From positions 120,131 through 184,130 of the forward strand of contig JAJPGZ010000012.1 in NCBI GenBank assembly GCA_021325495.1: a stretch of 64,000 nt of DNA, read 5' to 3'. Numbering within the stretch: the first letter of the stretch is position 1; each line of letters starts with the position of its first letter. The position numbers and the translations under genes are program-made. The notes under the pieces were generated by a model that was given only the letters and a program-made list of their open reading frames with translations, was not told where the DNA came from and did no database searches. Source of the DNA: Spartobacteria bacterium (GTDB taxonomy: Bacteria > Verrucomicrobiota > Verrucomicrobiia > Chthoniobacterales > UBA10450). Shown here in pieces: positions 3,398 through 63,099 of this stretch.

Positions 3398-3454
3398 GCC
3401 GCTTGACGTTTGCCCCGCGAAATCTACAGTATGTGTCCTAGTCCGCGCTGGAAG

Positions 3455-3481
3455 GAGTGGGTGCAGTAGCCCACTCTTTTT
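3455..3481 (+). terminator. Terminator/attenuator-like hairpin in the nusA leader
   Basis: GAGTGGG (3455-3461), loop TGCAGTAG, CCCACTC (3470-3476), then TTTTT (3477-3481), 22 nt before the nusA ATG. No plus-strand gene lies upstream, so it is not a conventional 3-prime terminator. Confidence 0.35.
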
Positions 3482-3502
3482 AGTCTGCGGACTGGATGTT
3501 TT

Positions 3503-4771
3503 ATGAACGCCGAATTTATTGCCATGCTCGACTACCTGGAGCGGGAACGCGGGATCAAACGCGATGTCCTGCTCGAGGCGGTATCGACTGCGTTGCTCTC
3601 GGCCTCGAAAAAAAGCGTGAGCGCGTCACGCGATCTGCGCATCGACATCGACCCGAAGACCGGCGTCATTCGCGCGCTCGCGAAATTGCTCGTGGTCGAA
3701 GACGTCACGAATCCGCAGGACGAAATTTCGTTAGCCAAAGCGCGCAACATCAAAGCGGACGCGAACGTCGGTGACGAAGTGGAAGTGGAAGTGACTCCGA
3801 AAAATTTCGGCCGCATCGCCGCGCAAACCGCGAAGCAGGCGATGATGCAACGCATTCGTCAGGTCGAGAAGGAGATGATTTACGAGGAGTTCAAGGACCG
3901 CGCCGGTGAAATTGTTTCGGGCACGGTGCGCCGGTTCGATCGCTCGGATGTGATTCTCGATCTTGGCAAATTCGAAGCGATCATGCCGCAGCGCGAGCGC
4001 GTGGTGGTTGAAGATTACAACGTGGGCGATCGCTTGCGCGCCTATGTCGTCGCGGTCGATAACGGAATCCGCGGACCGGAAATCATTGTTTCGCGCAGCC
4101 ATCCGAATTTCGTTAGGCGACTTTTCGAAATGGAAGTGAGTGAAATTGCCGACGGCACGGTCGAGATTCGCGGCATCGCCCGCGAAGCGGGTTATCGGAC
4201 GAAGATCGCGGTCTGGAGCGCGAATGAAAAGGTCGATCCGGTCGGCGCTTGCGTCGGCATGCGTGGTTCGCGCGTGAAGAACATTGTGCGCGAGCTGAAT
4301 AACGAAAAGGTGGACATCATTCGTTGGAGCTCGGACCCGAAGGAATACGTGCTCGAGGCGCTGAAGCCGGCCAAGGTGAAAAACCTCGTGTTCGATACGG
4401 AAAAGAAGAGCGTGCAAATTTCCGTGGATGAAGATCAGCTTTCGCTCGCGATCGGGAAAAAGGGACAGAACGCGCGACTGACTTCGCGATTGACCGGTTG
4501 GGAAATCAACATCGACAAGGACACGTCGGCGACGACGGCGGTCGAGCAGAAGGTCGCGCAAGCGGCGCAAACGCTCGCGGCCGCGTTGCCGATCACGAAT
4601 GACCAGGCGATGACGCTGGTGAAGTCCGGTTTCACTAACTTAGAAGGATTGCGCGACGCGGACGTCTCTGATTTCGTGGACATCCTCGGCGTCGATGAAG
4701 CGAAGGCGCAGGAAATCCATGCGGCCGTGCCGCGAGAAGAAGCAGCAGCGCAGAACGCCGGCTCGGCCTAA
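3503..4771 (+). CDS. nusA: Transcription termination/antitermination factor NusA
   Basis: 422 aa with an N-terminal NusA domain, S1 and two KH domains (GACVGMRGSRVKNIVRELNNEKVDII). It is followed by infB. Confidence 0.95.
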   Translation: MNAEFIAMLDYLERERGIKRDVLLEAVSTALLSASKKSVSASRDLRIDIDPKTGVIRALAKLLVVEDVTNPQDEISLAKARNIKADANVGDEVEVEVTPKNFGRIAAQTAKQAMMQRIRQVEKEMIYEEFKDRAGEIVSGTVRRFDRSDVILDLGKFEAIMPQRERVVVEDYNVGDRLRAYVVAVDNGIRGPEIIVSRSHPNFVRRLFEMEVSEIADGTVEIRGIAREAGYRTKIAVWSANEKVDPVGACVGMRGSRVKNIVRELNNEKVDIIRWSSDPKEYVLEALKPAKVKNLVFDTEKKSVQISVDEDQLSLAIGKKGQNARLTSRLTGWEINIDKDTSATTAVEQKVAQAAQTLAAALPITNDQAMTLVKSGFTNLEGLRDADVSDFVDILGVDEAKAQEIHAAVPREEAAAQNAGSA

Positions 4772-4802
4772 CGAGCCATGAAAAAGATTTTTAGATATCA
4801 GA

Positions 4803-6977
4803 ATGGCAACGAAAACGACCAGCAAGACGGCAGCGAAAAAAACGGCGACCCGCAAAACCGCGGCGACGAAGCCGGCTTCCGGCAAAGCCAAGGTCGTTAA
4901 GAAAAAAACGGAACCGGCCCCGGCTCCGGAAGTTAAAAAGCCGGCCGCGCATAAACCGCCGCCGGCGCCGAAACGCCATGTCGAGAGCGTTTCGTTGATC
5001 GATAAACAAGCGGCGCCGAAGAAATCGGAAGACGGCGAAGTTAAGAAGAAAACGACGGTGTTGCCGCCAATCTCGCGCATTCGCGAATCCATGGCGGCGC
5101 CGCCGCCGAAACCGGTCGAGGCGCCGAAGCCCGAGCCGCCAAAGGAAGTTGTCGATCTTGCGCCGGAAGCGCCGGCGACTCCGGTGGAGGAGGAAGAGCC
5201 GCAGAATGTCATCCACATCAAGCCGCCGATTATTGTGAAGCAACTCGCGGCAGAGCTGGGCTTGAAACCGCATCAGGTCATCGCCGAGCTGATGGCTTTC
5301 AACATTTTTGCGAACATCAATCAGACGATCGAGCCCGACATCGCGTCGAAAATTGCGGAAGCGCACGGATTCGTTCTCGAAAAGGAGCGCCGCGAAAAAG
5401 GCGGCGGTGTGCACAAGGTCGAGCAGGTCGTGGTCGCGCCGCCCGCGCCCGTTATCCAGAAGGAAGAAGAATTAAAACCGCGCGGTCCCATCATCACTTT
5501 CATGGGTCATGTCGATCACGGTAAGACCTCGCTCATGGACGCGATCCGCAAGACGCGCGTCGCCGCCGGTGAAGCGGGCGGAATCACCCAACACATCGGC
5601 GCGTATTCGGTCGATCACAAAGGGTCGCGCATTACTTTCATTGATACGCCGGGTCACGCTGCGTTCACGGCCATGCGCGCGCGCGGCGCAAACGTGACCG
5701 ACATTGTCGTGCTCGTTGTCGCCGCGGACGACGGATTGATGCCGCAGACGCTCGAAGCGATCAGTCACGCCAAAGCTGCGCCACATGTGAAGATCATGGT
5801 GGCGATCAACAAAATCGATTTGCCCGGCGCGAACATCGACAGGGTAAAGAAACAACTTCAGGACCAGGGACTGACGCCCGAAGATTGGGGCGGCGAAACC
5901 ATTGTCGTGCCCGTTTCGGCTACGAAAGGTCAGGGCATCGATCAGTTGCTCGAGATGATGACGTTGCAGGCAGAGGTGATGGAATTGAAATCGTCACCGA
6001 CGGCAAAGGCGCGCGGCACTGTCATCGAAGCGCAGGTCGAAGCCGGCCGCGGACCGGTCGCGACCGTCATCGTGCAAATGGGCACGATACGCGTAGGCGA
6101 TCCATTCATCTGCGGCGATTACAGCGGCAAAGTGAAATCGCTCATCAACGATCAGGGCAAGATGATCAAGGAAGCGGGGCCGGCCATGCCGGTAAAAGTT
6201 CTTGGTTTCACCGGCCTCCCGAATGCCGGTGACGAATTCTTAGCCATGGAGTCTGAGCGCGAAGCTAAGCAACTAAGTGATGAACGGCTTGAAGCCAAGC
6301 GCGCCAACAAACTCGCGGCCCCCCAACGCGCCACTCTCGAAACATTGCTCGAAGCCGCCGATGGCAGGAAGACGCTGAAGATTGTCTTGAAAGCGGATGC
6401 GCAAGGCTCGCTCGAAGCGATCATTGGGGCGCTCGGTCAAATCGAAAGCAAGAAAATCAGTCTTGAATTCGTTCATTCGGCTGTCGGTCCCGTGTCCGAG
6501 TCGGACATTCTGCTCGCGAGCGCGTCCAACGCCGTGGTCGTTGGCTTCAACGTCAAAGTCGAGTCGAACGCGGTCACCGCCGCGCGTTCCGAAGGCGTGC
6601 AGGTAAAACTTTACAGCATCATCTACGAGCTGATCGATCAGATTAAAGAAGCGATGGCCGGATTGCTCGACCCGGAACATCGCGAGACGGTCATCGGACA
6701 CGCGGAAGTGAAACAAGTTTTCCAATTGAGCAAAGGTATCGTCGCCGGTTGTCTCGTGACCGACGGCCGGATTGCGCGCGTGGCGCGTGCGCGCGTCTTG
6801 CGCCGCCGTCAGCCGGTTTACGACGGCGGAATCTCGACGCTGCGTCGTTTTCAGGACGACGTGAAAGAAGTCCGGTCCGGTCTCGAGTGCGGTCTCAAGC
6901 TCGGCGATTTTAGCGAATATCAAGTCGGCGACATCATCGAGTCGTATCAACTCGAGCAAATCGCGCAGAAACTTTAA
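4803..6977 (+). CDS. infB: Translation initiation factor IF-2
   Basis: G-domain motifs [20 protein letters not shown] and NKIDL. The N-terminus is long, basic and Pro/Ala-rich. Confidence 0.95.
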
Positions 6978-14980: not shown

Positions 14981-15055
<75 letters not shown>

Positions 15056-16773: not shown

Positions 16774-17723
16774 GGTCGATCTAACGAGATTGGCGGCAGG
16801 ATGCGCTCGATCTCGGCGCGATGCGGCTCGTATTGCGCGGGAAGTTTCAGCGATTCGCCGAGATGCTCGACCGGCTCGTCCGCCGTGAAGCCCGGACCGT
16901 CAGTCGCGATTTCGAAAAGGATTCCGTTCGGCTCGCGAAAGTAAATCGAGTGAAAATAAAAGCGGTCGATGATCGGCGTGACGTGCAAGCCAAGATCGAC
17001 AATCACGCTTCGCCACTGTTCCTGCTCGGCTTCGTCCGCGCAGCGGAACGCGATGTGGTGGACCGTCCCCGCGGAATTCAATCCGAATTCGCCGTCCGCT
17101 CGTTCGACGATGTCGATCTTGCCACTTGTCGATCTTTCATTCACGGCGAAGCGCCGCCGGCCGTTTTGTTCGTTCAGCAATTCGAACCCGAGCATCTGCA
17201 AAAGTTTTTCGCTGCGCCCGAAACGTTTCATTTCCAGGGTCGGCGCGTGGAAGCCGTGAATCGCGAATTCGCGCGGCACTCCGCTTTTGTAGGCAAGATC
17301 GACATCGTCGAGGTGCGGCGACGTGATTAATTCCACGAGCAACCCGTCCGGATCCGCGACCCGCAGAACTTCATCGCCGAAACGCGTCGCCGTCTGCTCG
17401 CACAAAACGCGTTGGTCTTTGAAGCGCGACTTCCAGAATTCGAGCGCGGTCGTCGGGATGGCAAAACTCGTCGCCGTGACCTGCCCCACTCCGCGACTGC
17501 CGCGACGCGCGCCCGGCCACGGGAAGAATGTGATCGCAGTCCCCGGTCGCCCAGTTCGATCGCCGAAATAGAAATGGTAAGACGAGGGATCGTCGAAGTT
17601 GACGGTGCGCTTCACGAAACGCAGGCCGAGCACACCGGCGTAGAAATCGAGATTGTGCTGCGGCTCGCTCGCGATGGCGGTGATATGGTGGATGCCGCGC
17701 AGTTTCACGCGTGAACTGATCAT
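16770..17723 (-). CDS. VOC-family ring-cleaving dioxygenase / glyoxalase-like protein
   Basis: ORF trimmed to the ATG at 17723 (MISSRVKLRGIHHITAIA). It has two VOC repeats; the second contains VHHIAFRC. Confidence 0.8.
   Translation of the reverse strand: MISSRVKLRGIHHITAIASEPQHNLDFYAGVLGLRFVKRTVNFDDPSSYHFYFGDRTGRPGTAITFFPWPGARRGSRGVGQVTATSFAIPTTALEFWKSRFKDQRVLCEQTATRFGDEVLRVADPDGLLVELITSPHLDDVDLAYKSGVPREFAIHGFHAPTLEMKRFGRSEKLLQMLGFELLNEQNGRRRFAVNERSTSGKIDIVERADGEFGLNSAGTVHHIAFRCADEAEQEQWRSVIVDLGLHVTPIIDRFYFHSIYFREPNGILFEIATDGPGFTADEPVEHLGESLKLPAQYEPHRAEIERILPPISLDRP
17111..17136. repeat. Head-to-tail pair of TGTCGATCTT (17111-17120, 17127-17136), 16-bp period, inside a CDS
   Basis: The two copies are translated in two different phases of the same gene (GKIDIVE and NERSTSG). 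Confidence 0.9.
17293..17320. repeat. 28-nt word GCAAGATCGACATCGTCGAGGTGCGGCG, repeated 27/28 at 18503-18530
   Basis: The second copy reads GCAAGATCGACATCGTCGATGTGCGGCG. The first copy lies antisense in the dioxygenase gene (HLDDVDLAY). The second lies sense in prmA (CKIDIVDVRRR). The first 19 nt recur at 49613-49631. Confidence 0.85.
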
Positions 17724-18579
17724 GTATTTGTGGAGAAAGCGAGCCAGTCCGCAATGGTGGATCGACAACGAAGAGCCGCTGCGCGCGCGGTTCGGAAATG
17801 ACATCGCGGTAATCGAGCGTGCGAATCGGAAGTTGATCGAAATCGAGATCGCGTGCGAAAAGCCTAACGAGCTGAAGAAATTCGGCGGACAGGCGCAGAA
17901 GCTTCCGCGCGATTGGCTCAAACGCTTGGCACGTCAGCACGCGACGCAGCCGATTCGAATTAAAGATCGACAACTACTCATTCCTGCGGGCGCAGCGTTC
18001 GGGACCGGCGAGCACGCGACGACTGCGATGTGTTTACAATTGCTCAAGCGCGTGATGGAAGTCCGGGGAGCACAGGCCGCTGGCCTGTGGTGTTCGTCGG
18101 CTCGCCGAACACGAGTAACTCCGGCGAGCCGCCGCAGTTTGCAGGCGGGCCGCCTGCGCTCCCCAGAACCAGAGTTGGTTGTCGATCTTGGGACGGGCTC
18201 GGGAATTCTGGCGCTGGCGGCGCGTTTGTTAGGCGCGAAGCGCGTGGTCGCGATCGACAACGACCCAACCGCGATTCGCGTCGCGAAAGAAAACGCGCGG
18301 CGGAACAAGATCGACAAGGTGCAATTCAAGGTCGCGGATGTGCGACGATTAAAGTTGCCGCGCAAGATCGACATCGTGGTCGCGAACTTGTTTAGCGAAT
18401 TGCTGATTGAGATTCTGCCGAAGTTTCACGGCGCTTCGCAGTTTATCTTGTCCGGAGTTTTGCGTGAGCAAGAAAGAAAAGTCGTACGCGCGCTGAAGCG
18501 TTGCAAGATCGACATCGTCGATGTGCGGCGGCGGGGAAAGTGGATCGCAATCTTCGCGCGCGGATTGCGACGGTCATAG
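17722..18579 (+). CDS. prmA: Ribosomal protein L11 methyltransferase
   Basis: GTGEHATT, DLGTGSGILALAA and AIDNDP motifs. The ORF is trimmed to the ATG at 17722. It carries a ~34-aa insert (see 18065-18164). Confidence 0.85.
   Translation: MYLWRKRASPQWWIDNEEPLRARFGNDIAVIERANRKLIEIEIACEKPNELKKFGGQAQKLPRDWLKRLARQHATQPIRIKDRQLLIPAGAAFGTGEHATTAMCLQLLKRVMEVRGAQAAGLWCSSARRTRVTPASRRSLQAGRLRSPEPELVVDLGTGSGILALAARLLGAKRVVAIDNDPTAIRVAKENARRNKIDKVQFKVADVRRLKLPRKIDIVVANLFSELLIEILPKFHGASQFILSGVLREQERKVVRALKRCKIDIVDVRRRGKWIAIFARGLRRS
18065..18164. other. 100-nt hairpin-rich, in-frame insert inside prmA
   Basis: An outer stem GGGGAGC (18065-18071) / GCTCCCC (18158-18164) encloses three hairpins: CACAGGCC/GGCCTGTG (18071-18089), GGCTCGCCG/CGGCGAGCC (18099-18130) and GCAGGCGG/CCGCCTGC (18141-18157). 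It encodes VRGAQAAGLWCSSARRTRVTPASRRSLQAGRLRS between two conserved PrmA motifs. Confidence 0.6.
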
Positions 18580-32152: not shown

Positions 32153-33499
32153 GTGCTGAACTACATCTGGCTTGCACTGGTTTTGCTCGCGGTCGCGATT
32201 GGCGGTTGGAACGATCATCTCAAAGAGGTGACCAACGGCGCGCTCGACGGCGCGAAGACCGCAGTAACGATCGCTCTCGGTTTGGTCGGGGTGATGGCGC
32301 TTTGGCTCGGCGTCATGCGATTAGCCGAGCGCGCCGGCCTTGTGCAAAGAATCGCGCGCGGGCTGCGGCCGTTAATGGAGCGATTATTTCCCGACGTTCC
32401 GCCGGACCATCCGGCGATGGGTTCGATGCTGATGAACATGGCGGCGAACATGCTCGGGCTCGGCAATGCCGCGACGCCGCTCGGATTGCGCGCGATGCGC
32501 GATCTGGAATCACTCAATCCGCGCCCGGGCGTAGCGTCGAACGCGATGTGCACTTTTCTCGCGATGAATACCGGCTCGGTGCAACTCGTGCCGGCGACGG
32601 CGATTGCGATTCTGGTTTCGGCGGGATCGACTCGACCAACATCGATTGTGGGGACGGCGCTGATGTCGACGCTGTGCGCGACGACGGTCGCGCTGATTTC
32701 GGTGAAGATTTTTGAGAAGTTGTCGATCTTTCAACCACGCGGCGCGTCCGGCGTTGAAAGATCGACAACAGCGCATCCGCGCGTAATCGCGACTGGCGAA
32801 AACGTGTTCGACGATCTCTCGCTCGGCCATCCACCGTCGATGCGTCCGGCGATGTGGGGTTCGTTCGCGATCCTTGCCCTTCTCGTTCTCTTCATCGTTT
32901 TTTTCCTTCGCATCGTCACGCCCGATCTCGTCGGCGGTTCGTTGCCGAGCGATGCGCCGCCAAACATTTTCGTCCGCACCGTGAATGGATTGTCGATCTT
33001 AGCGATTCCGTTTTTGCTCAGCTTCTTCCCGCTCTACGCCGCGGCGCGCGGGGTGAAGGTGTACGAGGAATTCGTCGAAGGCGCGAAGGAAGCGTTCCCG
33101 GTGATGCTGAGGATCATTCCGTTTCTCGTCACCATGCTGGTGGCAATCGGAATGTTCAAAGGCGCGGGTGGAATCGACATTCTCACGCGGATTTTAAATC
33201 CGATTTTAACGCCGCTGCATTTCCCGCCCGATCTGGTGCCGCTGTCGTTGATGCGGCCATTGAGCGGCAGCGCAACACTCGCGTTGCTTACCGACATCGT
33301 GCATCGGCTCGGCCCGGATAACATTGTCAGCTTGATGGCGGCGACGATTTACGGAAGCACGGAGACGACGTTCTACGTCGCGGCGGTTTACTTCGGCTCG
33401 GTCGGGATCAAACAGACGCGGCACGCGATTCCGGCCGGACTGCTCGCCGACCTCGCTGGCATCGTCGCGTCGGTCATCATCTGTCGCGCGGTGTTGTAA
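32153..33499 (+). CDS. Nucleoside-recognition-domain membrane protein (fused SpmA/SpmB-like halves)
   Basis: Two Gate-type halves are joined by a linker that contains the 17-bp inverted repeat at 32719-32769. Confidence 0.75.
   Translation: MLNYIWLALVLLAVAIGGWNDHLKEVTNGALDGAKTAVTIALGLVGVMALWLGVMRLAERAGLVQRIARGLRPLMERLFPDVPPDHPAMGSMLMNMAANMLGLGNAATPLGLRAMRDLESLNPRPGVASNAMCTFLAMNTGSVQLVPATAIAILVSAGSTRPTSIVGTALMSTLCATTVALISVKIFEKLSIFQPRGASGVERSTTAHPRVIATGENVFDDLSLGHPPSMRPAMWGSFAILALLVLFIVFFLRIVTPDLVGGSLPSDAPPNIFVRTVNGLSILAIPFLLSFFPLYAAARGVKVYEEFVEGAKEAFPVMLRIIPFLVTMLVAIGMFKGAGGIDILTRILNPILTPLHFPPDLVPLSLMRPLSGSATLALLTDIVHRLGPDNIVSLMAATIYGSTETTFYVAAVYFGSVGIKQTRHAIPAGLLADLAGIVASVIICRAVL
32719..32769. 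repeat. Perfect 17-bp inverted repeat GTTGTCGATCTTTCAAC (17-nt spacer) GTTGAAAGATCGACAAC
   Basis: The arms are 32719-32735 and 32753-32769. Each contains the 10-mer. The repeat is in frame in the inter-domain linker (KLSIFQPRGASGVERSTT). Confidence 0.9.
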
Positions 33500-49831: not shown

Positions 49832-51659
49832 ATTTTTCGCCTAACGAGCGCGGCGCATTCGGCTCGAGCGCGTCGAGATCGTAGATGGTCCCCCAGTCGC
49901 CCGAGGAAACGATCGGCGCGACCGCTTCCCACGGCCGCGTGCTCGTGCCGTAACTGGATTTTTCCTCGCGTCCCCAAAAGAGATAACGCACTCCGAGCGC
50001 GCGAGCCGATTCCCGCCAATTGGACGCGCCGTTCATGAGATTGCGCAAAGCGCCTTCGACTTTGTTGTATTCAAATCCCTGCGTCCAAAGATGCCCGGGA
50101 TAACCCATGACAACTTTCCGGCCGTTCAGGAGCAACGGATGATTGTAAGTAGGATGACTGGCGAAACGCGCTTCCACCGGTAACACGCTCACGCCCGCGC
50201 CGACGCCATCGACTTCGCCGCGGTTGGCGATGCCAAATCCATCTTTCCCTTCCGCGAGCCCGCCGAAAAGACTAACGAATCCGGAACCAAAGAGCGCGAT
50301 GCAAACGCCCACACGCACCGGCTCCGACCATTGCCGAATCAAATGCGACCACAAAAACGGGAGCACGAGAAAATAAGCCCAGATCATGAGTTTGAGATTG
50401 TCCCACTCCCAGGGCGCGAATTTGAAAAGTATGCCTGCGAGAAAAATCGCAATCGCCGGAAGCAGGAACGCGATTTCTTCCGGGAATTTTTCGCCCGGTT
50501 TGAGCTCCTGTTTCCAAAATCGCGCGATACGAATGCCGACGAGGACGAGCACGAGCGGGAGAAGAATTCCGAAATTGACGAACCAGAAATTGAGGAATGA
50601 CGAGCGACCGAAGGTGTGATCGTTGCGCACCCAGCCGGGATGCCATTGCAGCATGGAACCGGCGTGGAAATTGTCGCTCACGAGCCAGACGAAGAATGTC
50701 GCGGGGATAAATGCGGCGGCGATGAGCACAGCGATGTGACGGCGGACCGCGTTGTCGCCGCCGGCGAAAAGGAAAACGAGAACGCAGGAGAGCGCGAGGA
50801 AGGTGTGGACATGAAAGAGCGGGAGCGTGGCGTAGAGCGCGAGCTCGACCGCGAATGGAAGTGCAGGACGGTCCGAGCCGGACGGGCGATTTTGTCGATC
50901 TTCGTTAGGCCAAAAATATTTTCGCCAATGCCAGAGCAGGAGCAGGCCGACGGGAATGGCGTAAAGCCAGCCGCGTTGCGTCACGAACATGGAAAGCGGA
51001 ATGCTTTTCCAGGCGATGTCCGGTTTGCCCTGGTAATCTTCGAAGGCAAACGTGCGCAGTAATTGGAAACCGACGACGCCGCCGTTGAAAAGAAATCCGG
51101 CGATGACGAATTCGCCGCCCCAACGCCAGAGCGCGTAGAACGTGGCTAACGAACCGAGTAGCCCGACCCAGACGAGGCTTTGCGCAAGATCGACATGTAA
51201 CAATACGAGGAGCGCGTTGAAGAGATCGACGCCGGCCGGATAACGCATCTTGCTCGCGATGTAGATGGGATTATCGGGCCAGAGATGAACGCCGTTCGCG
51301 AAATTTTTGATGTAAGTGATGTGCAGCGCAAGATCGCCGAGGTTGTTAGGCGATTGAATTTTCCATTCGCCACCCTCCATGTAGTAGAGCCAGAGGAACG
51401 AACGAAAAGCGAAGATGGCGAAGACGAAGCCGAGAAAACAAAGCTCGATCCGCGCGTAACGTTCGGGCGCGCCGTTGTCGATCTTGCGCGGAGCCGGCGC
51501 ATCATTCGTCGTTAGGTAAGTGGCGATGGCGGCGAGCAGTCCGAAGATGATGGCGAATCCGGCAATGAGCGGCTGCAATCCCCCGCCCGCCATGCCGACA
51601 AGCAAACCGCAAACGGTGGCGGCGTTAACGAAGATCAATCCCGCGGCTAATGCGCGCAT
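49824..51659 (-). CDS. Large polytopic membrane protein (possible GT-C-type glycosyltransferase)
   Basis: 611 aa with more than 12 TM helices and a soluble C-terminal domain. It lies next to another GT39-like gene and rfbB/rfbD. Confidence 0.6.
   Translation of the reverse strand: MRALAAGLIFVNAATVCGLLVGMAGGGLQPLIAGFAIIFGLLAAIATYLTTNDAPAPRKIDNGAPERYARIELCFLGFVFAIFAFRSFLWLYYMEGGEWKIQSPNNLGDLALHITYIKNFANGVHLWPDNPIYIASKMRYPAGVDLFNALLVLLHVDLAQSLVWVGLLGSLATFYALWRWGGEFVIAGFLFNGGVVGFQLLRTFAFEDYQGKPDIAWKSIPLSMFVTQRGWLYAIPVGLLLLWHWRKYFWPNEDRQNRPSGSDRPALPFAVELALYATLPLFHVHTFLALSCVLVFLFAGGDNAVRRHIAVLIAAAFIPATFFVWLVSDNFHAGSMLQWHPGWVRNDHTFGRSSFLNFWFVNFGILLPLVLVLVGIRIARFWKQELKPGEKFPEEIAFLLPAIAIFLAGILFKFAPWEWDNLKLMIWAYFLVLPFLWSHLIRQWSEPVRVGVCIALFGSGFVSLFGGLAEGKDGFGIANRGEVDGVGAGVSVLPVEARFASHPTYNHPLLLNGRKVVMGYPGHLWTQGFEYNKVEGALRNLMNGASNWRESARALGVRYLFWGREEKSSYGTSTRPWEAVAPIVSSGDWGTIYDLDALEPNAPRSLGEKSR
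50893..50909. repeat. Composite of both words: TGTCGATCT-T-CGTTAGG
   Basis: Word A (50893-50902) and word B (50902-50909) share one T. The same arrangement, with TCGTTAGT, occurs at 13273-13289. Confidence 0.85.
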
Positions 51660-51754
51660 GAGGTGGATCGGCCGCTCCGCGGACGATGACGAAATGTTTG
51701 CGGCCCTCGGCCGCCCGTTATTGACATCGAGCGACGGAGCGCTCGATCCACCTC
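51660..51754. other. 95-nt intergenic element bounded by an 18/20 inverted repeat
   Basis: GAGGTGGATCGGCCGCTCCG (51660-51679) pairs with CGGAGCGCTCGATCCACCTC (51735-51754). An inner hairpin GCGGCC-CTC-GGCCGC lies at 51700-51714. The element fills the gap between two co-directional minus-strand genes and abuts the ATG at 51659. Confidence 0.7.
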
Positions 51755-51755
51755 G

Positions 51756-53243
51756 TTATTCATGCGTGCGTTGACCGCCAACGAAATCCGGTTGTCGACC
51801 GGGGAAGAATTCGGCGAAACGTTTGGCGTTTAAGTAAAGCTTCGACGTGTCCTGATAGGCGCGGATGCGCAGCGGCGCGGTGAAATAGGATTCGGTCAAC
51901 TTCGCTTCCACCTTGTCGATCTTGTCCTCCTGCACGAGAAGAAAATCGGCATCGACTTTTGCGGGAAGGTTTTCGTGCTCGTAATAACCGACGTTCGGAA
52001 AATCGCCGAGCATCCAGGGCAACGGATACGAACTTTGCCTAACGAGATGGCCAACGAGGTGATAATTGATCGGGTTGCGCTTCGCCAGCGTGAGCAGCGG
52101 CTCGGTCAGTTTCCAAACGTCGTTGTAAGTTTGCACGTAAACGTACGGTTCGGTGTCAGTGGTGCAGCGGAAATAATTCAGCCGAATCGAAGCGATGAAC
52201 GACGCGACGAGGAGGGCGCTGAGCGCGAGATTTGCCAGCCGCTTGTTAGGCACAAGAAACGGGACCGCGCCGAAAAGAAAAAGAAACGGCCAGACGATAC
52301 TGATGATGCACCACGGCGTCTTGTAATGGACGTAGCTGTAAACCGCGAGGGTGCCGACGCCGTAGATGGCGAGATAACGAAGGCTAAAATTTTTGAGTTG
52401 CTGACAGAAAACGCAGGCGATGAGTCCGAGCAGCACCGGCCATTCGTAGCGCGCAATGAGTTTAAGCCAGTAGTGCCACGGCTTGTCGTGGCCGTGACCT
52501 TCGCTGCCGGTTTCGAACCATGGTTTGTAAGCCATGAATATGTCTTTCACGCCGTTCCAGTGAAAGAACGTGCCGGAATAGAAAAACACGATGAGCGCGA
52601 CGCCGACGAAAGTGATTACGGCAAGATCGACATAGTCCCATTTTTGTTTCACCCATTTCGCGTCGGGCAAGGGATTGAGCTTCGCCGAAAGTTGCAGAAC
52701 CGGAATTGCGATGAGCGCGCAACCGATGTGAATGATGTAGGTCTCTTTCGTTAGGATCATTCCGGCCACGCCCATCCCGACGCACCAGAGATAATTCACG
52801 GTCCCAACCCGCCAGAGTCCGAACAAACCGAACACGAACAACATCGAGAACATCAAGAGCCACGCTTCGTGAATGGAATAGCGCCCGTAGAAAACGAACG
52901 CGGGCGAGACGGCCATGGCGAGCGCGGCCAGACGAGCGACGTTGCGACTAACGAACGGCTCGAATTTGAGGGCGAGCCAGATGCAGATCGTGCTCACGAT
53001 CACGACCGGCATGCGCAGGGCCCAGATATTTCGGCCGAAGAGACATTTGAAAAGGAAGAGCACGTAGAAGTGGAGAGGCCCGTGATAATTCGTCGGGTCG
53101 TAGCGATAGAAGCCCTGCTTCACGATGTGCGCGTCGACGAACCAGCCGTTGATGCCTTCGTCGAAGTGCGGCGGTTTGATTCCGAGAAATAAAATCCGCA
53201 AAAGCGCGCCGAGGCCGACGATCAACCACGGCGTCCAATCCAT
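51756..53243 (-). CDS. GT39-like membrane glycosyltransferase
   Basis: ORF trimmed to the ATG at 53243 (MDWTPWLIVGLGALLRILFLG). It has a PPHFDEGING loop and many TM helices. Confidence 0.75.
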   Translation of the reverse strand: MDWTPWLIVGLGALLRILFLGIKPPHFDEGINGWFVDAHIVKQGFYRYDPTNYHGPLHFYVLFLFKCLFGRNIWALRMPVVIVSTICIWLALKFEPFVSRNVARLAALAMAVSPAFVFYGRYSIHEAWLLMFSMLFVFGLFGLWRVGTVNYLWCVGMGVAGMILTKETYIIHIGCALIAIPVLQLSAKLNPLPDAKWVKQKWDYVDLAVITFVGVALIVFFYSGTFFHWNGVKDIFMAYKPWFETGSEGHGHDKPWHYWLKLIARYEWPVLLGLIACVFCQQLKNFSLRYLAIYGVGTLAVYSYVHYKTPWCIISIVWPFLFLFGAVPFLVPNKRLANLALSALLVASFIASIRLNYFRCTTDTEPYVYVQTYNDVWKLTEPLLTLAKRNPINYHLVGHLVRQSSYPLPWMLGDFPNVGYYEHENLPAKVDADFLLVQEDKIDKVEAKLTESYFTAPLRIRAYQDTSKLYLNAKRFAEFFPGRQPDFVGGQRTHE

Positions 53244-60097: not shown

Positions 60098-60385
60098 CTA
60101 TTTCCGGCGAATGCGATCGAGCAGCCTCGCCATCGCGCTCTTCTTTTCCGGCGGCGACGGCGAAATGTTCATGTCGATCTTGACCGTCGTGCGCGGTGGC
60201 GGTGCGAAGGAAATGCGCTGCGTTTTTGCGAGGATGCGGTATTGCGCGACCGGTTTCCAATCGCTCATCCCTTCGTGCCAGTAGAAATCTTCCTTCAGTT
60301 CGCCGGCGAGAATTCTGCGGTTGAACTCCTCCTCGCGGAATTCGCCTAACGAAGTGCCGTCGATGCGACAAACGTGAAAGATCAT
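60098..60385 (-). CDS. GYF_2 (DUF4339)-like small protein
   Basis: ORF trimmed to the ATG at 60385 (MIFHVCRIDGTSLGEFREEEF...YWHEGMSDWKPV). It overlaps the upstream gene by ATGA. Confidence 0.6.
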   Translation of the reverse strand: MIFHVCRIDGTSLGEFREEEFNRRILAGELKEDFYWHEGMSDWKPVAQYRILAKTQRISFAPPPRTTVKIDMNISPSPPEKKSAMARLLDRIRRK

Positions 60386-63099
60386 TTTCGATTTGCGATG
60401 GTGCCGAATTCGCCTTGCTGGTGAATTAGTTTCGCGACTAACGCGGTCCAACCGGTTTGATGCGACGCGCCCAGCCCCGCGCCGGTGTCGCCGTGAAAAT
60501 ACTCGTGAAACAAATAGAGATGTCGATCTTCCTTCTGCGCTGTAGGGGACGCTGTTAGCGTCCCAGGGAAGCTGGCAGCTTCGCCTACAGAAGAAGAATT
60601 TTGCATAGCGCGCTCGAAGGGTCTCTCGCCGGATTCGTTAGGCAGAAAAAGTTTAATTAAACGGTTCGATAATTCGTTCGCGATTTCCTTCAAGGTTAGC
60701 AAATTTCCCGAGCCGGTCGGACATTCCACTTTGAAATCGTCGCCGTAGTAATGATGAAACTGCTGCAATGATTCGATCAGGAGATAATTGATCGGGAACC
60801 AGACCGGTCCGCGCCAGTTCGAGTTGCCGCCGAAAATCCCGGTCTGCGATTCCGCCGGTTCGTAGGAAACAATCTTTTCTTCGTCGCGAATCGTTAGCCG
60901 ATACGGATTTCGTTCGTGAAATTTGCTGAGTGAACGCACGCCGTAGTCGCTGAGAAATTCATCCGGATCGAGCATGCGCCGCAACAAACATTTCATGCGA
61001 TGACCGCGGGTGAGCGCAACCAGCCGGCGCTCTTTCATTCCCGGCTCCTGCCAGCGCGAGACGAGACTGGCGAGGTCGGGCCGATGTTCGAGATACCATT
61101 CGAGACGCGCCTTGAATCCGGGCAGCGCGTCGATGAGTTGCCATTGAATCGTCTCGACCGCGAGGAGCGGCATCAAACCGACTAACGAACGCACTTTTAG
61201 CGGAATGTAACGTCCGCCCGGCGTGTGCAGGACGTCGTAATAAAATTCGTCCTCTTCATTCCACAGCCCGATGCCTTTGCCGCCGAGATTGTTCATGGCG
61301 GCGGCGATGCTGAGGAAATGCTCGAAGAATTTGGTGGCGATGTTTTCGTAAACGTGATTCTCGGCCGCGAGCTCGATCGCGATCCGCATCAAATTGAGCG
61401 AAAACATTCCCATCCAGCTCGTCCCGTCGCTTTGTTCGAGATGCGAGCCGTCGGGAAAGCGCGCGCTGCGATCGAAGACGCCGATATTGTCGAGTCCGAG
61501 AAATCCGCCTTCGAAAATGTTGCGACCGGTTGAGTCCTTGCGATTCACCCACCAGGTGAACGCGAGCAGCATTTTGTGAAAGACGGTTTCAAGAAATGCG
61601 CGATCGCCTTTGCCGGTTTGTTTGCGTTCGATCTGGTAAATGCGCCACGCCGCCCATGCCAGCACCGGCGGATTCACATCGCCGAAATTCCATTCATACG
61701 CGGGAATCTGTCCGTTCGGATGTTGGAACCATTCGCGCACGACGACATCGATCTGTGATTTGGCGAATGCAGGATCGACAAGTGCCAGCGGGATGCAGTG
61801 AAAGGCGAGGTCCCACGAGGCGTACCACGGATACTCCCACTTGTCCGGCATCGACATCACGCGCTCGTTGTAGAGATGCTGCCAATCGAAATTGCGTCCG
61901 GAATAGCGTTCGTTAGGCGGCGGTGGTTGGGCCGGGTCGCCCTCAAGCCATTGCTCGACGATGTAATGATAGAATTGCTTGTTCCAGATCAGCCCGGCGA
62001 GCGCCTGTCGGTAAACGGCGCAATGGTCGCTCGTTAGGCAACTCGACTCCCGCTGCGCGTAAAATTCGTCCGCTTCCGCTTTGCGCGCGGCGAAGACGGC
62101 GTCGAAATCTTTGAACGCGTCGCGGGCATTTCGTCCGGGGAGTTCGTCGCGCTTGGTTAGGCGCAACCTGACGCCAACGCTTTCGCCCGCTGCGATGACG
62201 AAGCGATAATGCGCCGCGGCTTTCGTTCCGACTTTGTTCGGATTAACGATGTCGATCTTGTCCTGAATCACGGCATCGCCGATGGAATCCTTCACATAAC
62301 GCGAGTGGTTCGGAACGCCCCACAGCCGCTCGAGATTGGAATCGTTTTCAGTGAAGAGCAGTCGCTCCGCTTTTTCGCAATGGAGACGATACGTGCCGAG
62401 CAAGTTGTGACTAAGCTCGATCTCGTTAGGCGTTCGCTCTTGCAAGTTCGGTTTGTCGTTGTCCCGCCCCCAGCACCACGTGTTCCGAAACCAAATCGTC
62501 GGCAAGATGTGCAGCGTGGCCGGTTCGGGACCGCGGTTGGTCGCAGTCGCGCGAATCAGAATGTCGAACGGCGACGCTTTCGCGTATTCGACTTCGACGT
62601 CGAAGAAGCGATTCTCGGCGAACACATCGGTGTTCCAGATTTCGAACTCGCCTTCGCTCTTGGAACGTGCGCCGCTTCGCCTAACGAGCTCGTCATACGG
62701 AAACGCGGCCTGCGGATAACGGTACAAGATCGACATGTAACTGTGGCTCGGCGTCGCGTCGGTGTACCAATAAAGCTCCTTCACATCTTCGCCGTGATTC
62801 CCCTGCGGCCCGCTCACGCCGAAAAGTCGCTCCTTCAAAAACCCGTCGCGCTCATTCCAAAATGCGAATGCAAAACAGAGCCGACCTTTGAAATCGGAAA
62901 TGCCGGCGAGGCCATCTTCATTCCAGCGATACGCGCGCGAACGGGCGTGATCATGCGGCAAATAATTCCAGGCGTCGCCGTTCGCGCTGTAATCTTCGCG
63001 CACCGTGCCCCACGCCCGCTCGGCCAGATACGGGCCCCAGAAATACCACGGTTCGTTAGGCGAATTATTTTCCGCCAGTCGCTGCTGCTCGGCGTTCAT
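60382..63099 (-). CDS. GH63-like (alpha/alpha)6 glucosidase-type glycoside hydrolase
   Basis: 905 aa. C-terminal catalytic region ...FHEYFHGDTGAGLGASHQTGWT. Confidence 0.85.
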   Translation of the reverse strand: MNAEQQRLAENNSPNEPWYFWGPYLAERAWGTVREDYSANGDAWNYLPHDHARSRAYRWNEDGLAGISDFKGRLCFAFAFWNERDGFLKERLFGVSGPQGNHGEDVKELYWYTDATPSHSYMSILYRYPQAAFPYDELVRRSGARSKSEGEFEIWNTDVFAENRFFDVEVEYAKASPFDILIRATATNRGPEPATLHILPTIWFRNTWCWGRDNDKPNLQERTPNEIELSHNLLGTYRLHCEKAERLLFTENDSNLERLWGVPNHSRYVKDSIGDAVIQDKIDIVNPNKVGTKAAAHYRFVIAAGESVGVRLRLTKRDELPGRNARDAFKDFDAVFAARKAEADEFYAQRESSCLTSDHCAVYRQALAGLIWNKQFYHYIVEQWLEGDPAQPPPPNERYSGRNFDWQHLYNERVMSMPDKWEYPWYASWDLAFHCIPLALVDPAFAKSQIDVVVREWFQHPNGQIPAYEWNFGDVNPPVLAWAAWRIYQIERKQTGKGDRAFLETVFHKMLLAFTWWVNRKDSTGRNIFEGGFLGLDNIGVFDRSARFPDGSHLEQSDGTSWMGMFSLNLMRIAIELAAENHVYENIATKFFEHFLSIAAAMNNLGGKGIGLWNEEDEFYYDVLHTPGGRYIPLKVRSLVGLMPLLAVETIQWQLIDALPGFKARLEWYLEHRPDLASLVSRWQEPGMKERRLVALTRGHRMKCLLRRMLDPDEFLSDYGVRSLSKFHERNPYRLTIRDEEKIVSYEPAESQTGIFGGNSNWRGPVWFPINYLLIESLQQFHHYYGDDFKVECPTGSGNLLTLKEIANELSNRLIKLFLPNESGERPFERAMQNSSSVGEAASFPGTLTASPTAQKEDRHLYLFHEYFHGDTGAGLGASHQTGWTALVAKLIHQQGEFGTIANRK
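60540..60590. other. 51-nt nested-hairpin, in-frame segment inside the GH63-like gene
   Basis: An outer stem CTGTAG (60540-60545) / CTACAG (60585-60590) encloses GGGACGC-TGTTA-GCGTCCC (60546-60564) and GAAGCT-GGC-AGCTTC (60568-60582). It encodes SVGEAASFPGTLTASPT (17 codons). Confidence 0.45.

Follow-up and report, generated by a model that had tools for sequence, protein, structure and literature searches.

How does a 100-nt palindrome come to lie, in frame, within the gene of the ribosomal protein L11 methyltransferase, and what kind of element is it? The question is raised by a 64,000-nt stretch of a Spartobacteria bacterium genome (contig JAJPGZ010000012.1)—here called the window, whose numbering is used throughout—in which a nested palindrome occupies positions 18065-18164 on the plus strand within prmA. 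With a probability of roughly 0.8, we take this segment to be a non-autonomous, REPIN-like member of a family of palindromic repeats dispersed in the Chthoniobacterales (Verrucomicrobiota). [quoted passage not shown] This view is supported by further copies, by the insertion itself, by covariation of the stems and by related arms that flank genes resembling those of REP-associated tyrosine transposases (RAYTs).

The segment and its place in PrmA

The host gene is intact. Its product matches Pfam PrmA with E=2.8e-43 as well as the solved PrmA structures 3grz and 1ufk in the PDB, it carries the GTGxHxTT and DLGTGSG motifs, and the synteny glyoxalase-family gene–PrmA–NDK–aminotransferase is kept in eight orthologous loci; domain, motifs and gene order are hence all present. 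The gene and the parts of the element are as follows, R1 being a covariance model of one arm that is described below.

17722-18579, plus strand: prmA (ribosomal protein L11 methyltransferase) ORF, intact, 285 codons, hosting the element
18055-18171, plus strand: codons for a stretch of about 39 residues, PrmA residues 112-150 (MEVRGAQAAGLWCSSARRTRVTPASRRSLQAGRLRSPEP), which replaces a 4-residue Thermus loop in the phmmer alignment to 1ufk
18062-18167, no strand: whole element including a 3-nt extension at each end (inverted repeat; flank comparison of 42 complete copies)
18065-18114, plus strand: left 50-nt arm, made up of GGGGAGC, hairpin 1 and hairpin 2 (R1 62.1 bits, E=8.7e-12, model positions 1-50)
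18072-18088, no strand: hairpin 1 of the left arm (CACAGGCC / GGCCTGTG, perfect 8 bp; inverted repeat)
18090-18112, no strand: hairpin 2 of the left arm (GTGTTCGTCG gct CGCCGAACAC, 9 of 10 bp, one mismatch; inverted repeat)
18115-18164, minus strand: right 50-nt arm, inverted, without spacer to the left arm (R1 65.5 bits, E=1.6e-12, model positions 1-50)
18117-18139, no strand: hairpin 2 of the right arm (AACTCCGGCG agc CGCCGCAGTT, 9 of 10 bp, one mismatch; model match and folding)
18141-18157, no strand: hairpin 1 of the right arm (GCAGGCGG g CCGCCTGC, perfect 8-bp stem; inverted repeat, partial model match)

That the segment is an in-frame palindrome of 100 nt, as first annotated, is borne out by the open frame and by its folding. 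The 121-nt stretch centred on it reaches an RNA minimum free energy (MFE) of -73.4 kcal/mol on the plus strand and -77.8 kcal/mol on the minus strand, with z-scores of -6.58 and -7.21, and none of 200 shuffles was as stable. A repeat finder reports one long inverted repeat with arms at 18062-18107 and 18122-18167, which are 74% complementary and contain local palindromes. The segment consists of two abutting, inverted 50-nt arms with two hairpins each—four local hairpins, and not the three that the initial annotation counted in its interior. The cloverleaf-like shape proposed there is not the RNA MFE fold, which is one long imperfect hairpin (-68.8, versus -59.0 for the cloverleaf-like alternative); under DNA parameters, both come out equal (-35.8 and -35.3). 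The inverted repeat runs 3 nt past each end (TCC...AGA), and the consensus of the 42 complete family copies likewise ends in TCY-GGGGAGC ... GCTCCCC-RGA. Five of the six frames of the segment are without a stop codon, which we dropped as a sign of adaptation: at 72% G+C about one in four random 100-mers would be open in at least five frames by a rough hand estimate.

Alignment to orthologues confirms an insertion. The linker between the conserved motifs on either side measures 44 residues in the window protein (49 had been estimated) and 9 in close orthologues with an empty loop and in Thermus PrmA (the initial annotation gave 12-14 for E. coli and Thermus). In nucleotides, the linker DNA amounts to 144 nt in the window versus 39 nt in the empty loci L005 and L210, a net insertion of 105 nt relative to the empty allele of near relatives. 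This is a multiple of three and corresponds to 35 codons, close to the 34 first given. The closest relatives (P0003-P0006, 79-82% identical in protein) all have the canonical short linker ...LKRV-VRPGD-IVVDLGTGSG of 9 residues, so that the long linker is not a homologous, non-palindromic feature of all close orthologues. The 120 best PrmA relatives span 245-354 aa. For the exact junction and a target motif no claim is made, as the boundary is ambiguous: the codons of empty alleles (GTG CGG GCC GGA GAT) resemble the element end (GTG CGC TCC CCG GAA), which may be a targeting cue or a coincidence.

On the protein level, the phmmer alignment pairs residues 84-111 with 90-117 of the 1ufk chain and residues 151-277 with 122-250. 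The insert hence falls in loop 118-121 of the Thermus protein, which measures 4 residues in solved PrmA structures, lies on the surface directly before the S-adenosylmethionine (SAM) motif and joins the helix after GTGxHxTT to strand beta-1 (DLGTGSG) of the SAM-binding fold. In an AlphaFold2 model (mean pLDDT 83.5), the methyltransferase domain scores 88-97, and residues 123-145 fall below 50. The insert, with 8 Arg in 38 residues, is probably a disordered surface loop rich in Arg, Ala, Ser, Gly and Pro that leaves the predicted methyltransferase fold intact. Since the net insertion is a multiple of three and holds no stop, the ribosome would read through the element and add a tolerated loop to PrmA. 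PrmA has a second variable site, exemplified by VIYRSVTSKNRSRNKS in L006, but this one is unrelated and lacks palindromic character (-15.9 kcal/mol).

At the other end of the gene, the prmA start codon (17722-17724) overlaps that of the divergent glyoxalase-family gene (17721-17723, minus strand) by 2 nt. The overlap falls in a palindrome at 17718-17725 (TGATCATG), and the identical 2-nt overlap is annotated in the orthologous locus L005 (8709/8710).

A dispersed repeat family and its putative transposase

The search for other copies was made by scanning the pattern GGGGAGCRCAGGCNNNNNGCCTG over contigs of one genome per species, and it matched at least 118 stretches. About 106 of the matches listed are Verrucomicrobiota metagenome-assembled genomes (MAGs)—Chthoniobacterales, Candidatus Udaeobacter, 'Spartobacteria' and Terrimicrobiaceae—with up to 5 loci in one assembly; a few are Acidobacteriota, one is a planctomycetote, and four look like chance single matches in other phyla. 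Neither a PrmA locus nor Rickettsia is among the matches listed. The copies measure 99-292 nt and follow a common plan: TCY-GGGGAGC, hairpin 1 (consensus RCAGGC-N5-GCCTGY), hairpin 2 (10 bp with a fixed inner GGC(A/G) core), a spacer of 0 to about 200 nt and the inverted arm. Their flanks prolong the inverted symmetry (TCY...RGA), and a comparison of the flanks of the 42 complete copies revealed no target-site duplication. Most copies are intergenic and lie just outside genes, e.g., upstream of ffh, argJ, eno and pyrB. Some are found in frame deep in long ORFs, namely of MetH (L126), an RND/CusA-like efflux pump (L089) and a DnaE2-like polymerase (L109). These three copies—at 3062-3162 of L126, between the MetH B12 and activation domains, at 6935-7111 of L089 and at 210-310 of L109—are read in another frame of the element (..GSAG..) than the PrmA copy (..WGAQA..). 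L211 (365-516) is a further intergenic copy, and so are P0244 and P0245, non-PrmA ORFs with near-identical insert peptides.

R1 was built from 51 arms of a gapless subset, none of them from PrmA or the window, and it matches both window arms over their full length with the scores listed above, which places the segment in the family. With filters off, R1 finds nothing else in the 64-kb window above 14 bits, and neither three sub-patterns with up to 3 mismatches nor blastn-short detected a second copy there. In orthologous loci, the R1 matches in prmA are exactly two, with none in the surrounding neighbourhoods of roughly 20 kb. Searches with the translated insert were less suited: a 42-aa profile against an index of 5.8 billion proteins returned 31 candidates, missed the PrmA proteins themselves and is uninformative, although two weak matches pointed to an intergenic copy; a phmmer search with the insert's peptide over 1.84 billion representatives returned three matches, one of them spurious (a repeat protein), the query being too short for a survey of hosts.

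The stems of this family covary. As a MAFFT alignment of 150 arms was too gappy (70 columns), 164 unique arms were read alignment-free in a fixed register. At pair 8-24 of hairpin 1, 83 arms have G-C and 68 have A-T, and pair 14-18 shows all four Watson-Crick types while being paired in 93% of the arms. Of 170 arms, 75 have a hairpin 2 that pairs over all 10 bp, where composition-matched shuffles peak at 3-4 bp. Its outer six pairs comprise three or four pair types each and are 78% Watson-Crick, compared with 40% after shuffling columns among sequences (maximum 43% in 500 shuffles) and 20-33% after sliding by 1-2 columns. These hypervariable outer 6 bp (arm positions 26-31 and 43-48 in L009-L126) stand beside the invariant GGC core, and 123 distinct hairpin-2 stems were counted. 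The two arms of one element mostly carry differing hairpin-2 stems; hence, the conserved feature is the local hairpins and not the long hairpin. Compensatory changes among relatives are thus abundant in both hairpins, and the case that would have spoken against a repeat, i.e., neither a further copy nor such changes, does not apply.

A link to a transposase is provided by related genomes, where inverted pairs of the same arms (34-75 bits) flank RAYT-like ORFs in L120, L091, L106 and L067. The enclosed ORFs match Pfam Y1_Tnp with 28.8-32 bits (cut-off 23). In L120 and L091, the arms score 63-75 bits, and the ORF combines 28.8 bits for Y1_Tnp and the HUH motif VMPDHVHLL with a match to the NCBIfam REP-associated tyrosine transposase (75.1 bits, E=5e-21, positions 4-145 of 146). 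An internally deleted remnant of a transposase ORF lies between two arms in L023. As the same arms flank both a RAYT-like gene and this remnant, the short copies look like deletion derivatives: they would descend by internal deletion from a unit of about 0.6 kb (gene about 0.5 kb) in which two terminal inverted repeats (TIRs) enclose the RAYT gene. By analogy or homology with IS200/IS605 and REPIN-RAYT systems, the transposase would recognise the arms as single-stranded DNA hairpins, and cut and paste them without target duplication.

The sites of these units are of interest in themselves. In two Chthoniobacterales MAGs, complete TIR-RAYT-TIR units lie in frame within RecG helicase genes, at 2130-2741 of L120 (612 nt) and at 2543-3163 of L091 (621 nt), both lengths being multiples of three. 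The RecG ORFs (L120 1024-3738, L091 1446-4148) remain open over 900-904 aa, with Y1_Tnp between the DEAD and Helicase_C domains; we found no description of such an arrangement. In L106, a RAYT-like unit of 580 nt (1946-2525) lies in MetH between the homocysteine-methyltransferase and pterin-binding domains and splits the gene into two ORFs, and in L067, a Planctomycetota MAG, another one (4108-4822) follows a FabA-like gene. These differing locations—RecG twice, MetH and after a FabA-like gene—suggest that the transposase unit itself is mobile.

The PrmA loop across relatives and its possible histories

The states of the loop could be parsed in 103 of the 120 best relatives.

Empty (segment of 17-21 residues): 36 of 103
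Full member of the superfamily (WGA[QH]A ... R[VL]RSPE, several interiors): about 51 of 103
Unrelated GTAG-type palindrome (GRDGSPSRP...EKRPY; DNA in L208): 5 of 103
Short remnant (e.g., WGAQVRPPE, L133): about 8 of 103
Other state: 3 of 103

Roughly half of the relatives thus carry in-frame, stop-free family members of varying length at this loop. Frame and freedom from stops across dozens of inserts point to an element that is translated within PrmA, disrupting variants having been removed. As the closest relatives lack the insert, it would persist because it is tolerated as a neutral loop and not because it is needed. Nothing suggests a host function, considering the relatives without insert, the differing peptides of the two orientations, the unrelated inserts of sister lineages, the disorder and the missing Rfam match. 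PrmA is dispensable in E. coli and Thermus, which is expected to lower the cost of carrying such a passenger.

On a rough neighbour-joining tree of the proteins with the linker removed, the states are interleaved. The window protein clusters with the empty P0004, P0005 and P0006; P0007, which carries the GGGGAGC family, pairs with P0017, which carries the GTAG-type insert, beside empty forms; and P0010 pairs with P0029, which has another interior. Moreover, the window copy is inverted relative to those of L001, L003 and L004, as seen from the order of the two hairpin-2 units and a tblastn match on the minus strand. The window element is 95% identical to the inverted elements of L001 and L003, whereas the 240-nt prmA flanks on each side are 60-68% identical; relative to L004, the nearest insert-bearing relative, the element is 83% and the flanks are 80-81% identical. 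In these sequence comparisons, the similarity of the element is decoupled from that of its host gene. Such a decoupling would follow either from repeated hits or overwriting out of a slowly evolving pool or from one old, strongly constrained copy that flips in place.

The latter history—one ancient insertion into prmA, vertical descent, flips between the inverted arms by recombination or template switching, many deletions, and selection at the DNA or RNA level—is the strongest rival, though less likely than not. The stem pair AACTCCGG and GTGTTCGG is common to the PrmA copies of the window and L001-L004, and AACTCCGG occurs nowhere else among the 170 arms sampled. A mosaic copy such as that at 10407-10506 of L002, with outer hairpins in the window orientation and inner ones in the L001 orientation, is expected from in-situ inversion, its ends or its interior looking as though they had turned over separately, and no further copies lie near prmA. 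The short remnants fit as well: in L133 (linker RFWGAQAGSPGSPEPEKTLL), P0094, P0105, P0078, P0098 and P0052, they keep the termini of the element only (e.g., WGAQ-VRPPE) and look like in-place internal deletions of the insert. However, filled loops, empty loops and unrelated families (GTAG-type GRDGSPSRP and GGGGAGC-type with several interiors) are mixed along the tree, which would require many losses and replacements; the empty alleles are not scars and show the canonical (L/V)RPGD loop as in Thermus; the similarity of the element departs from that of the host gene; and an arm almost identical to the right arm of the PrmA copy is found in an intergenic copy (L211, 365-516). In short, the L211 arm and the P0244 and P0245 peptides favour a pool of elements, and the PrmA-only stem favours one origin.

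Across the order, the loop would serve either as a landing site used more than once or as an exceptionally permissive spot. It is conceivable, if not the expected outcome, that the loop before motif I is a true landing site for palindromes mobilised by HUH transposases, with many independent insertions, flips and replacements, and that the family, including the TIR-RAYT-TIR units of RecG, is adapted to coding sequence by being stop-free and a multiple of three. As a candidate targeting cue, the codons of the canonical (L/V)RPGD resemble the element's own GTGCGCTCCCCGGA end. If true, the family might represent a 'translation-compatible' transposon lineage with some choice of target site.

Several points weigh against reading the segment as a mobile REPIN-like passenger. 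Plain neutral persistence does not explain the contrast between element and flanks described above (95% versus 60-68%, 83% versus 80-81%). The confinement of AACTCCGG to PrmA among the arms sampled is compatible with re-insertion and with one origin alike. No copy other than that in PrmA lies in the 64-kb window or in about 180 kb around orthologous prmA genes, so that the evidence for several copies per genome (up to 5 loci in one assembly) and for a cognate RAYT comes from related genomes and not from the window's own. The NCBIfam match of the transposase lies slightly below the curated cut-off (75.1 versus 80), and mobility is argued by analogy.

It seems very improbable that the palindrome has been selected as a cis-acting structure of the prmA mRNA, be it to slow translation, to steer processing or stability, or to work as a riboregulator. 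The predicted RNA fold is very stable (-69 to -78 kcal/mol), compensatory change maintains the stems, the element is more conserved than its flanks, and REPs are known to affect mRNA stability (PMC3733652). But the covariation is equally expected of single-stranded DNA hairpins, the site is occupied in both orientations, the closest relatives are without the element, and the family occurs in many unrelated, mostly intergenic contexts and flanks transposase genes. The Rfam check proposed initially yields no family: at the gathering threshold, the only match in the window is a tRNA gene (14981-15052, RF00005, 71.2 bits), and in a permissive scan, the best overlap with the element is a miRNA hairpin model with 27.6 bits versus a threshold of 90.

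An adaptive, basic protein loop that binds L11, rRNA or another partner, with the palindromic DNA being incidental, is very unlikely in our view. It could draw on the Arg-rich peptide and on its retention in frame in about half of the relatives. Yet the two orientations encode differing peptides (LQTPAARRSYSCSASRRTPQ versus LWCSSARRTRVTPASRRSLQ), sister lineages hold unrelated peptides at the site, the loop is predicted to be disordered, and non-coding DNA holds identical units.

A classical MITE would descend from an insertion sequence with a DDE transposase and move by cut-and-paste with target-site duplication. This reading can draw on the terminal inverted repeats and the size of 100-300 nt but is highly improbable, as the 42 complete copies show no direct repeats and flanks that extend the inverted symmetry, the sole transposase type found between arms is HUH/Y1, and each arm forms hairpins of its own, like the ends of REPs and IS200/IS605. 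An in-situ origin through template switching alone is ruled out because the unit is dispersed elsewhere.

Further palindromes, known systems and significance

The initial annotation pointed to a similar, shorter nested-hairpin segment in a GH63-like gene of the window:

60540-60590, minus strand: in-frame 51-nt nested palindrome of GTAG type (CTGTAGGGGACGC...GCCTACAG) in the GH63/MGH1-like gene 60382-63099

Palindrome and frame hold true. With an R1 score of 9-10 bits, the segment falls outside the GGGGAGC family. It resembles the GTAG-type insert of some PrmA orthologues (L208). The ORF of 905 aa (GH63/MGH1-like by Pfam) gains 17 residues (SVGEAASFPGTLTASPT), which are common to close GH63-like orthologues and absent in the distant P0147, P0179, P0213, P0221 and P0237, and P0132, P0133, P0140 and P0145 have other inserts at the same position. 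Given this presence, absence and exchange of inserts at one loop, sequence comparison marks the GH63-like loop as another recurrent insertion site. Three further hairpins of the window are unrelated to the GGGGAGC family: a long intergenic one at 51650-51770, with a minus-strand gene on either side and -85.9 kcal/mol for 141 nt, an intergenic one at 3440-3500 upstream of the ORF at 3503, and one with a 16-bp stem at 32717-32770 in the ORF 32153-33499.

Among known systems, REPINs and RAYTs (Bertels & Rainey 2011; PMC3116915, PMC3337134) are the closest. REPINs relate to RAYTs as derivatives (PMC3337134), and TIRtrons have been described similarly (PMC3733652). The family described here shares with REPINs the two inverted palindromic units whose pairing can yield a single long hairpin of about 100 nt (74% complementary in the window), the many dispersed and mainly intergenic copies with a variable spacer (0 to about 200 nt) and no target duplication, and the short HUH/Y1 transposase gene that is flanked by the same repeats in related genomes. 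It differs by its two hairpins per arm, where REPINs have one REP, by its hosts, which are Verrucomicrobiota and not Proteobacteria, and by the intragenic, translated window copy, which departs from the extragenic position of REPs. Also, RAYTs are described as single-copy and immobile (PMC3116915, PMC3337134), whereas the unit here is found at different sites.

The REPs surveyed by Di Nocera et al. in 2013 (PMC3733652) offer further parallels. In the verrucomicrobium Opitutus terrae, REP dimers within ORFs encode 20-30 residues, including in DnaE2 and helicases, and their GTAG is often GTGG; phylum, intragenic dimers and the GTGG of the left window arm are thus shared. Different REPs occupy about the same site in the orthologous recB of two Xanthomonas species, and in TIRYT/TIRtron units, the TIRs on either side of a tyrosine-transposase gene are long or doubly palindromic, and some of them begin with GGGGWSAS (PMC3733652). 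Double-palindromic TIRs with a GGGG start around such genes are found here as well, but the terminal motif GGGGAGCR mismatches GGGGWSAS at position 7. For the GTAG REP superfamily of that study, GTAG is required at the stem's base in over 90% of members; here, 22 of 164 arms bear it, and the window arms read GTGG and GCAA. PrmA, RecG and MetH are absent from the supplementary host list of that paper (PMC3733652).

RPEs are palindromic repeats inserted in frame in Rickettsia genes (Ogata et al. 2000, via PMC3733652). The likeness is one of behaviour alone—palindromes of about 100-150 bp, in frame, with the gene functional and the peptide at the protein surface—in a different phylum and probably without a relationship in sequence. 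To our knowledge, RPEs have no known cognate transposase, whereas here a RAYT-like gene carries the same arms. IS200/IS605 elements (IS608, ISDra2) share the HUH/Y1 transposase, the hairpin ends and the absence of target duplication, and their single-stranded mechanism might apply here as well; their ends, however, are asymmetric sub-terminal hairpins without terminal inverted repeats, and they insert 3' of a specific tetra- or pentanucleotide, while no such target is definable here. In the searchable literature, whose coverage is incomplete, we found no description of the GGGGAGC family or of repeats in Chthoniobacterales or Udaeobacter. In-frame palindromic repeats as such are already known from Rickettsia RPEs and bacterial REPs, and the PrmA case adds another of this kind. 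Four aspects are less ordinary: how often inserts recur at one loop, copies that are flipped yet near-identical, an outer hairpin-2 stem that varies greatly and still pairs perfectly, and the in-frame TIR-RAYT-TIR units in RecG.

The Chthoniobacterales, to which Candidatus Udaeobacter belongs, rank with the most abundant bacteria of soils, and their repeats are, as far as we know, essentially undescribed. The GGGGAGC family would account for many odd 'hypothetical proteins' rich in Arg, Ala, Ser, Gly and Pro and for length variation of conserved proteins in soil metagenomes; recognising it would aid gene calling, orthology assignment and structure prediction in this order. The link to a RAYT-like transposase, which sits in frame in RecG and inside MetH, provides a REPIN-RAYT system outside the Proteobacteria for the question of mobile versus domesticated transposases. 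Finally, the alleles of the PrmA loop—empty, filled in either orientation, replaced or decayed—represent a natural experiment on how selfish palindromic DNA might be filtered into the loops that proteins tolerate.

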